Source of the DNA: an uncultured Phycisphaerales bacterium
GTDB lineage: Bacteria > Planctomycetota > B15-G4 > CAYZWU01
DNA: 64,000 nucleotides
Direction: 5' to 3'
Assembly: GCA_964482235.1 (NCBI GenBank)
Contig: CAYZWU010000028.1
Location: 6,645 to 70,644, forward strand
The position numbers and the translations under genes are program-made. Below the pieces are notes generated by a model. It saw only the letters and a list, made by a program, of their open reading frames with translations, did not search any database and had not been told where the DNA came from. Shown here one piece after another: positions 1-6,504 of this stretch. Numbering within the stretch: position 1 is the first letter of the stretch; the number at the start of each line of letters is the position of its first letter.

Positions 1-616
1 AACCGCCGCGGGACGTGCCGCCGGCGTGGAAGGCGCCGACCGATTCGCTCTGGTACCGCCTGATGTTGAACGGCTCGCCCGAACGGGTCGCCTCCCTGAG
101 CTTGATGGCGAAGGAAGCGCCGTCCGTGTATCCCGCAAGATCCTCCACGGGAAAGCCGATGCGGATCAGGGACTGCTTGATATCGCCTCGCATCCCCTCC
201 TTGACCACCACGCCGTTGTCCGCTTCCTCGACGAGGTACTTCTTGATCGACGTGTTCCGCCAGAGCTCGTGGAGAAGGCGCTCGTCGCTCGACGTGAGGA
301 CGATCCTGTCCTGATCCCGTTCCAGCTTGAGGAGGCCGAACTTCCGGATGTTCTCGCGGATGTCGCGCTCCACGTTCGGCGGCAGGGGATAGCGGCTCAT
401 GTCGCCGAGGAAGTTGATGATCGTCTCCTCGCCGTACCCCGCGGCCGCGGCGTTCCAGATTGAAAGAGGAGTGATGCGGAAGGTGTGGATGTGCTCGGGG
501 CTCTTCTCGAGCTCCGCGAAGAGGGACAGCATGTCCCTGGCATCGTGGAAGAGCGGATTGTCCACCTCGAGGAGCACGGTCCTGTCCGCCTGGACGATCA
601 GCGGCTTCTCGTACAT
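1..616 (-). CDS. xpb: Bacterial XPB/Rad25/Ssl2-family DNA helicase, 5' part only (runs off the left edge; absent from the ORF track)
   Basis: Manual translation from ATG at 616: MYEKPLIVQADRTVLLEVDNP...FAELEKSPEHIHTFRITPLSIWNAAAAG...IGFPVEDLAGYTDG...IRRYQ. This matches the N-terminal domain and Q-motif of bacterial XPB. No stop occurs before position 1. Confidence 0.85.
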   Translation of the reverse strand, partial: MYEKPLIVQADRTVLLEVDNPLFHDARDMLSLFAELEKSPEHIHTFRITPLSIWNAAAAGYGEETIINFLGDMSRYPLPPNVERDIRENIRKFGLLKLERDQDRIVLTSSDERLLHELWRNTSIKKYLVEEADNGVVVKEGMRGDIKQSLIRIGFPVEDLAGYTDGASFAIKLREATRSGEPFNIRRYQSESVGAFHAGGTSRGG

Positions 617-642
617 CACGTTCCCGGCTGTTCCCTGCTTGT

Positions 643-3600: not shown

Positions 3601-6504
3601 CTGCTCCTCGACCTTCCCTTCGCCGCGATCCCGATCAGCGGCCCATGGCGGCCCCTTTTTGCCGCGAGCGGCATCGAGAACCTCTTTCAGGACCGCGCCT
3701 GTGCTGCTCCTCTTCCTGCGAGCCACCTGCTCCGGCGTTCCGGCAGCCACCACCTCGCCTCCCCGGGCGCCTCCCTCGGGACCGAGGTCGATGACATGGT
3801 CCGCCACCTTGATCACGTCGGGGTTGTGCTCCACCACGATCATGGTGTTGCCGCCGTCCACCAGCTTCTGGAGCGTCTGCAGCAGGAGCCTGATATCGGC
3901 GAAATGAAGGCCCGTCGTGGGTTCGTCGAGGACGTAGAGGGTTCTGCCCGTTGCCGGGCGGCAGAGCTCGGATGAAAGCTTGACCCGCTGCGCCTCGCCG
4001 CCGGAGAGGGTTGTGGAAGACTGGCCCAGGGCCACGTAGCCGAGGCCCGTGTCGCGGAGGGTCTCGAGGATCCGCCGGATCTTCCCATGATTCTCGAAGA
4101 AGGACAGAGCTTCCTCCACCGTCATCTCGAGCACGTCGTGGATGCTCCTGCCGCGATAGCGGATGTCGAGGGTCTCCCTGTTGTACCGCCGTCCGCCGCA
4201 ATCCTCGCAGGCGATCTCCACGTTGGGCAGGAAGTGCATCTCCATCTCGAGAACACCGGTGCCGCCGCAGGTCTCGCAGCGGCCGCCCTTCTTGTTGAAC
4301 GAGAACCTCCCCTTGCGGAAGCCGCGCATCCGTGCCTCGCCCGTCGAGGCGAAGACGTCGCGGATCAGGTCGAACACCTTGGTGTAGGTGGCCGGGTTCG
4401 ATCGCGGCGTTCGACCGATGGGCGACTGGTCGATCTCCACGATCCGGTCGAAGAATTCCGAACCGTTGAGGCCATCGCACTCGCCGGCCTCGCGCCCCTT
4501 CCTTCCGAGTCCGAGCGCCTTGCGGAGCGCGGGAACGAGCGTCTCCTCCACGAGAGACGATTTACCCGAACCCGAAACACCGGTCACCACCGTGAGAAGC
4601 CCCACGGGAACGGATGCGTCGACGTTCTTCAGATTGTGATGCCTGGCTCCGCGAATCTCGAGAAACCGGCCGTCGGACCGGCGCCGCTTCGGAACCGGGA
4701 TGCTCTCCTCGTTCCTCAGGAAGCGCGAGGTCATGCCGTCCGAATCCTCCGAGACGGAGGCCGGCGAGCCGAGAGCCACGATCTCGCCGCCGTGCCGCCC
4801 CGCACCGGGCCCCATATCGACCAGGAAGTCGGACGAGACCATCATGTCGCGGTCATGTTCCACCACGATCACCGTGTTGCCCTTGTCCCGGAGTCCGGCC
4901 AGGGTGTCGATCAGACGGCGGTTGTCGCGCTGGTGCAGCCCGATCGACGGCTCGTCCAGCACGTAGACGATCCCCTGCAGACCCGATCCAAGCTGCGTGG
5001 CCAGGCGGACGCGCTGCGCCTCGCCGCCTGACAGGGTCGAGGCCGGCCTGTCGAGCGACAGGTAGTCCAGCCCCACGTCGCGAAGGAAGTCGAGGCGCGC
5101 CCGGATCTCGGCCAGGAGATCGTGGCCGATCTGCGCTTCGCGGCCTTTCAGGGTGAGGCTGCCGAAGAAGTCGGCCGCCTCGTCCACGGTCATGGCGGCC
5201 ATCAGGGCTATCGTCTGCCCGCGGAAGCTGACGGAGAGCGCCTCCTGCCGAAGCCTGGCGCCGCCGCATTCGTCGCAGACATGGCTGCGGAGGAACCTCT
5301 CGATGTGTGACGCCTTGGTGAAGCGGTACGCCTCCTCCATGGTGGGGATGATCCCCTTGATAGGCTTGTAGTCCTCGCCCTTCACCTCGAGGTTGGAGCT
5401 GCACGACTTCCACTTGAAGGAGAGGCGGATCTTCTCGTCGCCCGATCCGTAGAGCAGGACATTCCGCTGCGCCTCGGTCAGCGTCGACCAGGGCTGATCC
5501 AGAGTGAAGCCGAAATGGTCCGCCACCTTCGAGAGGGAGTCGCGACCCAGGCGCGCATAGGTCAGGTAGCCGGTTTTCGTCATGGTCCGGATCGCTCCCT
5601 CGTTGATCGAGAGGGACGGATCGGGCACGATGAGCTCGGGATCGGCCTTACGGATCGTGCCGAGCCCGTTGCAGAGAGGGCAGGCCCCCTGGGGCGAGTT
5701 GAAGCTGAAAAGCCGGGGCTCCATTTCCGAGATGTGCACGCTGCAGTCGGGGCAGGAGAGCTTCGACGAGTAGGTCCGGCTCTCCCCGTCCGCCTCGATC
5801 GTCACCAGTCCGTCGGCCATGGAGAGCGCCGTCTCGACTCCTTCGGCCAGACGGCTTCTCCGGTCCGCCGACAGCTTCAACCGGTCGATGACGAGCTCGA
5901 TCGTGTGCTTCTTGTACCGGTGAAGCTCGATACGATCCTCGAGACGCACTTCCTTTCCATCGATCCGGGCCCGGACAAAACCCTTGAGGCGCCATCCCTC
6001 GAGATCCTTCCTGTACTCTCCCTTTCTCTCCCGGACAACGGGAGCCAGGATCCGGACTCGCGAGTCATCGGGGAGCTGCAGGATGCGCTCCACGATGCTG
6101 TCCGGGCTCATGGCGCGGACCTCCCGGCCGCACTCGGGGCAGTGCGGGGTGCCGAGACGGGCGAAAAGAAGGCGGAAGTGATCGTAAATCTCGGTAATCG
6201 TGCCCACGCTGGATCGGGGATTGCGATTCACCGATTTCTGATCGATCGAAACGGTCGGGGACAGCCCCTCGATATGGTCGACCCGCGGCTTGTCCATCCG
6301 GCCCATGAACTGGCGTGCATAGGCGGAGAGGGACTCCACGAACCGGCGCTGGCCTTCCCGGTAGATGGTATCGCAGGCCAGGGACGTTTTTCCCGATCCC
6401 GAGACACCTGTGATCGTGATCAATGCGTTTCTGGGCAGCCGTAATCCTATGTTGCGCAGGTTGTGCTCACAGGCGCCCTGTATGATGATCTCATGAAGAG
6501 CCAT
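643..6504 (-). CDS. uvrA: Excinuclease ABC subunit A, tandem-duplicated single-chain form (two full UvrA units, 1953 aa)
   Basis: Four Walker A motifs (GVSGSGKT/S), four LSGGEAQR signatures, four (V/L)LDEP Walker B motifs, and UvrA zinc-finger Cys clusters in each half. The linker lies at about 3580-3670. Confidence 0.97.

Follow-up and report, generated by a model that had tools for sequence, protein, structure and literature searches.

The stretch of DNA analyzed in this work, hereafter the window, comprises 64,000 nucleotides (bases 6645–70644 of contig C28) of the genome of an uncultured Phycisphaerales bacterium, which was assembled to 5.74 Mb in 101 contigs with an estimated completeness of 92.1%. 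At the beginning of the window, the gene of a double-length (tandem) UvrA is directly followed on the minus strand by the gene of a bacterial XPB helicase and then, outside the window, by a gene for a 700-aa protein that resembles p52/Tfb2 of TFIIH in its modeled fold. This coupling of uvrA and xpb is real and is conserved within part of one phylum, the Planctomycetota. The explanation considered probable is that these genes provide ordinary UvrABC repair together with a co-produced XPB–p52-like translocase module, probably acting in the same damage response. The elements on which this explanation draws in the window are the following:

643..6504, minus strand: tandem (double-length) uvrA, an open reading frame (ORF) with a translation of 1953 aa and a TGA stop codon at 645-643.
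3625..6504, minus strand: UvrA unit 1 (residues 1-960), with canonical UvrB-binding and insertion domains.
3571..3669, minus strand: inter-unit linker of UvrA, about 33 residues (946-978), of low identity across tandem UvrAs.
646..3582, minus strand: UvrA unit 2 (residues 975-1953), with an intact ATPase core and diverged UvrB-binding and insertion domains.
643..646, minus strand: the sequence GTGA, in which a candidate xpb start codon (GTG, 646-644) overlaps the uvrA stop codon (TGA, 645-643).
1..646, minus strand: 5' part of xpb, the first 205-215 codons, covering the N-terminal domain and the start of the helicase core and continuing past the window edge.

The first of these genes had been read as a single-chain double UvrA in a preliminary description made from the letters of the window, and the profile searches bore this out. 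Two full TIGR00630 units were detected in a single open frame, with 1291 bits for unit 1 and 1160.4 bits for unit 2 (cut-off 729.8), and the whole protein reached 2532.8 bits with NF001503 (cut-off 1147) and 2446.7 bits with TIGR00630, in two stretches each. The UvrB-binding domain PF17760 (cut-off 23.3) was found in both units, with 121.2 bits in unit 1 (residues 133-238) and 63.1 bits in unit 2, as was the insertion domain PF17755 (81.8 and 41.7 bits, respectively, both above the cut-off). The two units share 50% identity. When 13 tandem UvrAs were aligned, the four Walker A motifs GxSGSGK(S/T) and the four LSGGE signatures proved invariant or nearly so, the CxxC cysteines of the zinc modules of both units were invariant, and the RxRKGEYRK stretch of unit 1 was conserved. 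The linker showed a mean identity of only 0.07 to 15 other tandem UvrAs, compared with 0.5–0.7 for the ATPase cores. The least conserved parts of the protein across lineages were the accessory domains of unit 2, with identities of 0.27–0.30; the cross-lineage identity of the UvrB-binding domain was 0.30 in unit 2 and 0.49 in unit 1. Judging from its sequence, the tandem protein would correspond to the usual UvrA dimer with both protomers joined covalently, the two units being predicted to form an intramolecular assembly that binds damaged DNA.

No second uvrA was found when the 92%-complete genome was searched, the next best TIGR00630 match being one of 40 bits. With NF001885 (PRK00635), a long UvrA model of 1809 positions that we take to be the chlamydial one, the protein scored 1331.2 bits, below the cut-off of 3054. 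The tandem UvrA is a trait of the planctomycete phylum that was already known from the literature. A search among proteins of 1074–3418 residues yielded UvrA matches in all of the 8000 candidates scored, and the best 120 of these 8000 measured 1792–2512 aa, almost all of those with a name belonging to Planctomycetota. The tandem form is nevertheless not general in the phylum. Tandem UvrAs were detected in three (G003, G008, and G020) of the 15 genomes tested that have no XPB, and fragments of one in a fourth (G007); the remaining 11 gave separate single-unit UvrA matches only, and one of them (G021) has an open frame of 1498 aa. Where XPB is present and not adjacent to uvrA (five genomes), two genomes carried single UvrA only and three carried tandem or paired forms.

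The xpb ORF can be read from an ATG at 616, on the same strand as uvrA and separated from its stop codon by 26 nt (642..617), and it leaves the window at base 2 with 205 codons inside. The end of uvrA at 643, the start of xpb at 616 and the gap between them had been given correctly in the preliminary description, and to these an alternative start is added here. The in-frame GTG at 646, which overlaps the uvrA stop codon, is preceded 10 nt upstream by AAGGAG. As a candidate XPB start codon lies in such a 4-nt overlap in 18 of the 24 uvrA-adjacent loci, including the present one, xpb may start at 646 rather than at 616. A stop-start overlap of four nucleotides is the usual sign of translational coupling.

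The part of XPB encoded in the window already matched PF13625 (E 2.7e-37) and NF045503 (219 bits). Once the gene was completed from the contig (L004:5560-7260, minus strand), a protein of 566 aa was obtained that scored 851.4 bits with NF045503 (repair_heli_XPB, cut-off 610), covering positions 1–547 of the 548 of the model, and that matched PF13625 (E 1.7e-36), PF16203 (ERCC3_RAD25_C, E 3e-49), ResIII, and Helicase_C. Residues G214, G216, K217, and T218, D308, E309, and H311, and R338, E339, and D340 were invariant in 25 XPBs; these correspond to the GxGKT and DEVH motifs of superfamily 2 and to the RED motif of XPB. The protein is a bacterial XPB equivalog with a predicted 3'-5' helicase/translocase activity.

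The gene for the 700-aa protein begins 13 nt after xpb. Its product has a single Pfam match, to the XPB N-terminal domain family PF13625 (residues 539-660, E 1.3e-15), and a single-sequence search against PDB sequences gave no match. When a profile of 34 homologues was used against the same sequences, the human XPB N-terminal domain (E 4e-5), the clutch region of p52/GTF2H4 (E 0.003), and yeast Tfb2 (E 0.018) were detected. An AlphaFold2 model built with the homologue alignment reached a mean predicted local distance difference test score (pLDDT) of 85.8 and a predicted template modeling score (pTM) of 0.76. Foldseek returned 33 PDB matches for this model at E<=1e-3, of which 32 were labeled as p52/Tfb2 or XPB chains in TFIIH-containing complexes (labels cross-checked against chain identities for some entries only) and the remaining one was the p52-p8 crystal structure. 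The best match was 8ebu_D (E 1.2e-10, about 510 columns), and the p52/Tfb2 chains as a whole ranged from E 1.2e-10 to 1.5e-7 over about 500–530 columns. Superposition with VIA-align placed 92–94 residues on the XPB N-terminal domain (Z 15–16, root-mean-square deviation 1.5–1.9 A, 23% identity) and 300–366 residues on p52 (Z about 15), with residues 193-684 of the model lying on p52 32-459; the N-terminal part resembled winged-helix regulators (Z 8–9). Both the clutch domain with the XPB N-terminal domain fold and the overall architecture of winged helices, clutch, and C-terminal part are present in the model. No nuclease family was found for this protein in Pfam, and the top fold matches were p52, the XPB N-terminal domain, and winged-helix proteins, a list from which the absence of nuclease folds does not exclude such a family.

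This p52-like gene was located directly 3' of xpb in most of the Planctomycetota loci, with or without uvrA, and weaker matches to the C-terminal domain of its product were detected 1–5 kb downstream of XPB in many other phyla. The near-constant neighbor of XPB in bacteria is thus the p52-like protein and not UvrA, which makes it the more general and the more surprising element of the operon, and the two proteins would be expected to bind each other. As a separate observation, a 758-aa PF13625 protein is encoded upstream of XPB, not downstream, in an unclassified bacterial metagenome-assembled genome (MAG; L110:7532-9805, plus strand).

The extent of the coupling was analyzed in two samples. 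XPB model matches were obtained in 206 of 401 Planctomycetota genomes, above the cut-off in 190, and the census by families comprised 40 XPB loci, one for each of 38 families, picked by contig flank, and two extras from the order of the window itself. In 14 of the 40 loci, which stand for 12 of the 38 families, xpb is immediately preceded on its own strand by a UvrA-type gene, so that the adjacency is known from these 12 families in addition to the window's own. In 12 of the 14 loci the matches directly upstream were those of a tandem UvrA, with an ORF that reads through in 11 of them (1618–1976 aa). One further family has uvrA at 5.3 kb from xpb, and the other 25 gave no UvrA match in the flank examined (8 kb in 20 of them and 0.85–3.5 kb in five). 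The second sample consisted of XPB loci from a public genome collection, both Planctomycetota-labeled and of other phyla, and overlapped slightly with the first (L087 is identical to L041, and L061 nearly so to L058). Adjacency was observed there in nine of 13 informative Planctomycetota-labeled loci, the closest relative being an uncultured Phycisphaerales MAG with an XPB identity of 82%.

Some of the loci showed peculiarities of their own. At L034 (G157:C1), the uvrA ORF extracted from about 1966 stops after 193 codons and UvrA matches continue for both units; the early stop may stem from a frameshift or a sequencing error, or the gene may be a pseudogene. In two families, the ORFs immediately ahead of XPB are shortened and diverged ones derived from tandem UvrA, of 1322 and 1467 aa and with weak UvrA/ABC matches, at L044:9666-13631 and L048:9686-14086 (both minus strand). 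The place of uvrA directly upstream of XPB, on the same strand, was occupied by gyrA at L043:5203-7851 (plus strand) and L050:9932-12544 (minus strand), which belong to two families whose XPBs branch among the uvrA-adjacent clades.

The history of the adjacency was followed on an IQ-TREE tree of 59 XPBs (a FastTree tree was also made), from which L054 (in-frame TGA), L077 and L099 (partial), L087 (identical to L041), and most of the non-planctomycete rows were left out. The adjacency label required four changes on this tree (bootstrap range 3–5), compared with 18.8 when labels were shuffled, and none of the 500 shuffles gave a value as low. The adjacent state sits in three well-supported XPB clades, and a single origin is possible. 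The conserved unit consists of uvrA-uvrA, xpb, the 700-residue gene and, usually, a ThiE-like gene; upstream and downstream of it, the SIS-domain, arginyl-tRNA synthetase (ArgRS), and transketolase genes that flank the unit in the present genome recur only in the closest relative (L059). Since the block is conserved and its flanks are not, the operon appears to be under selection rather than leftover synteny. The more cautious proposal of the preliminary description, that of at least a co-regulated repair operon, is thus well supported by the tight or overlapping spacing, the conserved adjacency, and the non-conserved flanks.

Regarding the XPB family as a whole, identities of 51–63% to the present protein were recorded across very distant bacterial phyla and four archaeal-labeled MAGs (loci L059–L138), and phyla interleave in the XPB trees, where Alcaligenaceae sequences, for instance, are mixed with those of Gemmataceae, and Spirochaetales sequences with that of a planctomycete. 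These observations suggest strong constraint, horizontal transfer or both. The XPB gene of L054 (G312:C12) contains one in-frame TGA, and P0128, a long XPB relative of 2088 aa, has a domain of the ADP-ribosylglycohydrolase family (PF03747). Long open frames over XPB, of up to 2995 aa, were considered as fusions and rejected, being out-of-frame, arginine-rich read-through of GC-rich DNA.

Neither uvrB nor uvrC is present in the window, as had been noted before, and both were located side by side on contig C9 (1033.6 and 524.2 bits, respectively); uvrB was also present in the five other adjacency genomes tested. Given that the operon holds the only uvrA of the genome and that canonical uvrB and uvrC lie elsewhere in it, ordinary UvrABC repair is the default reading. 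The window would then carry part of a DNA-repair operon with a housekeeping role in a marine planctomycete of the Phycisphaerales type, composed of tandem uvrA, xpb, a p52/Tfb2-like gene, and a ThiE/TenI-like gene. The tandem UvrA, as the only UvrA of the cell, would most likely sense the damage and load UvrB, with UvrC making the cuts. XPB and the 700-aa p52-like protein would make up a DNA translocase module of their own, which is conserved in numerous bacterial phyla and built like XPB–p52 of eukaryotic TFIIH, the clutch of the partner being homologous to the N-terminal domain of XPB. This module would have been placed directly behind uvrA in part of the Planctomycetota, where xpb is probably translated in step with uvrA by means of the overlapping stop and start codons. 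Made together in this way, UvrA and the XPB module would probably serve the same damage response, the part of the XPB–p52-like pair being a role in repair.

Several points weigh against this explanation or narrow it. The source genome is a MAG with an estimated contamination of 3.4%. The xpb start may be either ATG 616 or GTG 646, and the co-transcription of uvrA and xpb is a step that we infer. The Pfam family Tfb2 (PF03849) gave no match to the 700-aa protein at E<=0.001, and for this reason the protein, having the fold match without the family match, is named p52-like and not a member of the p52 family (in one Atlas cluster of look-alikes PF03849 was present on 10% of the members, which is a lead only). 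Global TM-scores to p52 were low (0.25–0.38), as the matching regions are distributed over domains with flexible links between them, and the binding of XPB by the p52-like protein is a prediction from models. Adjacency of uvrA and xpb was absent from 26 of the 38 sampled families, and no UvrA match was detected at any of the 65 XPB loci of other phyla, 58 of which have an upstream flank long enough to be informative; in most lineages, XPB and its partner therefore do their work with no uvrA beside them, and the link between uvrA and xpb may be one of regulatory convenience only. Finally, the deep branches of the XPB tree are weak and related genomes are not independent, making the number of gains and losses of adjacency uncertain.

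Could the genes simply be neighbors by descent? On this account the XPB module landed behind uvrA by chance in an ancestor and the order persisted, with the module serving an unrelated function, for example in transcription, replication restart or recombination. The confinement of the adjacency to one phylum and its patchiness there (12 of 38 families) are compatible with such a history, and so is the variety of genes that were found upstream of XPB elsewhere, including gyrA twice, an AP-endonuclease-fold protein, and metabolic genes; a passage of a 2026 review, moreover, calls the function of bacterial XPB elusive. An accident of position is harder to reconcile with a block that survives at 53–68% XPB identity in at least three well-supported clades, when the flanks are kept only in the closest relative, and with a 4-nt overlap that is itself conserved. 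Gene order without selection rarely lasts so long. We regard descent without a functional link as unlikely.

The favored combination of UvrABC repair with a co-produced module also has to be weighed against a direct hand-off. The preliminary description had put forward a hybrid form of nucleotide excision repair (NER) in which a pre-dimerized UvrA passes the damage to XPB, a proposal that found no support in a genome where this uvrA is the only one, both of its UvrB-binding domains are kept, and uvrB and uvrC are present. In its fuller form, the UvrA pseudo-dimer would recruit XPB and the p52-like protein to lesions, beside or instead of UvrB, perhaps through the accessory domains of unit 2. 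The 18 of 24 loci with the conserved stop-start overlap suggest a matched production of both proteins, and wherever XPB comes after a UvrA gene in the sample, that gene is a tandem or tandem-derived one (24 of 24). The UvrB-binding domain of unit 2 is diverged in all five of the adjacent operons scored, with PF17760 bits in units 1 and 2 of 121/63, 114/50, 119/42, 120/37, and 101/38.5; the same drop was observed in two of the three tandem UvrAs of XPB-less genomes (113.5/51 in G020 and 115.5/57 in G008, compared with 120/110 in G003). The divergence of unit 2 is therefore not tied to XPB and is general in many planctomycete tandem UvrAs, and the idea that this domain was repurposed for XPB was rejected. 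Furthermore, the accessory domains of unit 2 are the least conserved parts of the protein, unlike what would be expected of a conserved new interface, and a canonical UvrB-binding domain is kept in unit 1. A prediction of the complex between XPB and the UvrB-binding domain of unit 2 (residues 1090-1255) returned no answer (score 0.00), which is no evidence either way.

Gene fusions bear on the same question. UvrA domains were present in two of 62 long XPB relatives. One of them, P0023 (2512 aa, on a single contig), is a clean in-frame UvrA-UvrA-XPB fusion protein and speaks for a link between the two; P0122, the candidate for a second UvrA–XPB fusion, was rejected as a frameshift artefact in which the last UvrA module is out of frame. 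Besides these, four clusters of 1165–1249 aa with XPB-type Pfam matches only, a length that equals XPB plus its partner, were not counted as clean fusions; in one of them, P0124, about 250 residues rich in arginine separate the two parts. With uvrB and uvrC retained in the present genome, uvrB in all five other adjacency genomes tested, and XPB and its partner doing without a neighboring uvrA in 26 of the 38 families and throughout the other phyla of the sample, a hybrid NER of this type seems improbable. Equally doubtful is a wider proposal, according to which tandem UvrA, XPB, the p52-like protein and perhaps the ThiE/TenI-like protein would form one stoichiometrically co-translated machine, a forerunner or mimic of TFIIH-type repair, with the unit 1 side loading UvrB and the diverged unit 2 bringing XPB and the p52-like protein to damage that UvrB handles poorly. 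If it were true, bacterial XPB would gain its first defined pathway, and the XPB–p52 pairing would not be confined to eukaryotes.

An anti-phage defense or mobile-element module built of UvrA-like and helicase parts is very improbable, since the PADLOC matches that would suggest it (UvrA/mad3 561 bits, UvrA/mad8 232 bits, and XPB/PbeA 81 bits) reflect shared ABC-ATPase and superfamily 2 helicase folds, the p52-like protein has no PADLOC match, the UvrA units and XPB exceed curated housekeeping equivalog cut-offs, this uvrA is the only one of the genome, XPB is 51–63% identical across distant phyla, unlike fast-evolving defense genes, and the neighbors are ArgRS, a SIS protein, and transketolase. 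As the mad3 and mad8 models match UvrA, those defense components are UvrA-like and may be confused with housekeeping UvrA, or the reverse.

The last gene of the conserved unit encodes a TMP-TENI (ThiE/TenI-like) protein and lies outside the window on the same contig (G000:C28; L004:2777-3475, minus strand), where it overlaps the end of the p52-like gene and is followed by genes for a signal peptidase and the transketolase. Its product scored 101 bits with the ThiE model TIGR00693, below the cut-off of 145.1, and also matched the C-terminal part of NF006530, a Nudix-hydrolase fusion model. A second TMP-TENI gene, on contig C57, scored better (165 vs. 131 bits). Falling below the thiE cut-off, in a genome with a better TMP-TENI gene, the ThiE-like gene is probably a paralog with a role tied to the operon. 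It follows the p52-like gene in 17 of 23 uvrA-adjacent loci, compared with only one of the non-adjacent loci searched.

Upstream of uvrA, and before the SIS-domain and ArgRS genes, the following element was delimited:

6505..6936, no strand assigned: intergenic region 5' of uvrA, 432 bp, less GC-rich, the likely promoter region of the operon.

The GC content falls to 0.565 in positions 6001–7000, compared with about 0.65 around them, and this spacer would be the likely site of the operon promoter. A consensus scan of positions 1–7200 gave no promoter-like site, including no sigma-70-like site in the uvrA spacer. Four terminator-like sites were detected in the same positions, compared with 3.5 expected by chance, and none of them at the uvrA-xpb junction, so that the scan is uninformative. 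In the spacer, a TTGACA precedes a run of nine A, and no -10 element passed the scan.

The operon matters mainly for what it may reveal of XPB outside eukaryotes. Purified bacterial XPB has already been studied in assays, and the preliminary description had called it a protein without a clear pathway, in agreement with a passage of the 2026 review that describes XPB function in archaea and bacteria as "more elusive." The operon makes the question of its cellular role and partners testable, through the near-constant partner with a predicted fold like that of p52, the subunit by which XPB is anchored in TFIIH, through the welding of the pair to uvrA by the stop-start overlap in one planctomycete clade, and through a single-chain UvrA with diverged halves, which offers a means of studying the two UvrA protomers separately. 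A role of the pair in excision repair would mean that bacteria join a sensor of the UvrABC type to a motor of the TFIIH type; failing such a role, the XPB–p52-like pairing would still suggest that this sub-module of TFIIH is not confined to eukaryotes. No publication describing a uvrA-xpb operon or a bacterial p52-like protein was found in the literature searched, subscription journals and supplements lying outside the search.

Several known systems can be compared with this operon. The fusion of two uvrA genes in one ORF of twice the E. coli length has been described in Planctomycetes (Mahajan et al., 2021, Front Microbiol, PMC8567305), and a passage of the same article reports UvrA, B, C, and D together in the proteome of Tuwongella. 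The fused architecture published there is the same as the one found here; the main text of that article deals with UvrA in one passage and, within that text, XPB is mentioned nowhere and there is nothing on a p52-like gene or on a difference between the halves. The Planctomycetia/Gemmataceae-labeled loci L077, L090, and L109 have XPB that is not beside uvrA, unlike the present genome. The long UvrA of the NF001885 model likewise has a double-length architecture, which is common to both, the present protein being below the equivalog cut-off. Each of the present units has the parts of a protomer of the canonical class I UvrA homodimer, namely the two ABC modules, the UvrB-binding domain, the insertion domain, and the zinc modules; the difference is that here a poorly conserved linker of about 33 residues makes a single chain of the two protomers, which are 50% identical to each other and most diverged in the UvrB-binding and insertion domains of unit 2. 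A class II UvrA without a UvrB-binding domain is also known (as stated in part of PMC3167621).

Among the partners of XPB, the most similar to the one found here is p52. In human TFIIH, the p52 clutch and the N-terminal domain of XPB have the same fold and pair as a pseudo-symmetric dimer, by which XPB is recruited (Greber et al., 2019, PMC6422496). Like the XPB–p52(–p8) assembly of TFIIH (human XPB/GTF2H4 and yeast Ssl2/Tfb2), the bacterial pair consists of XPB and a multi-winged-helix protein with a clutch of the XPB N-terminal domain fold. It differs in being a two-gene bacterial module with a partner of 700 aa, compared with about 460 in p52, and only about 12% identity, and it is known here from genes and models. 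Archaeal XPB and Bax1 form a helicase–nuclease pair (according to parts of PMC7672443 and also PMC3353954). XPB lies beside the gene of a dedicated partner in that system, as it does here; in contrast to Bax1, the present partner has no Pfam nuclease family and its best folds are p52 and the XPB N-terminal domain. For bacteria, the corresponding passage on the XPB of Mycobacterium tuberculosis states that no XPB partner complex has been identified (Balasingham et al., 2012, PMC3353954). That protein is a bacterial XPB of the same family as the one analyzed here, with the difference that a conserved partner gene and a clade-specific link to uvrA are visible in the present operon.

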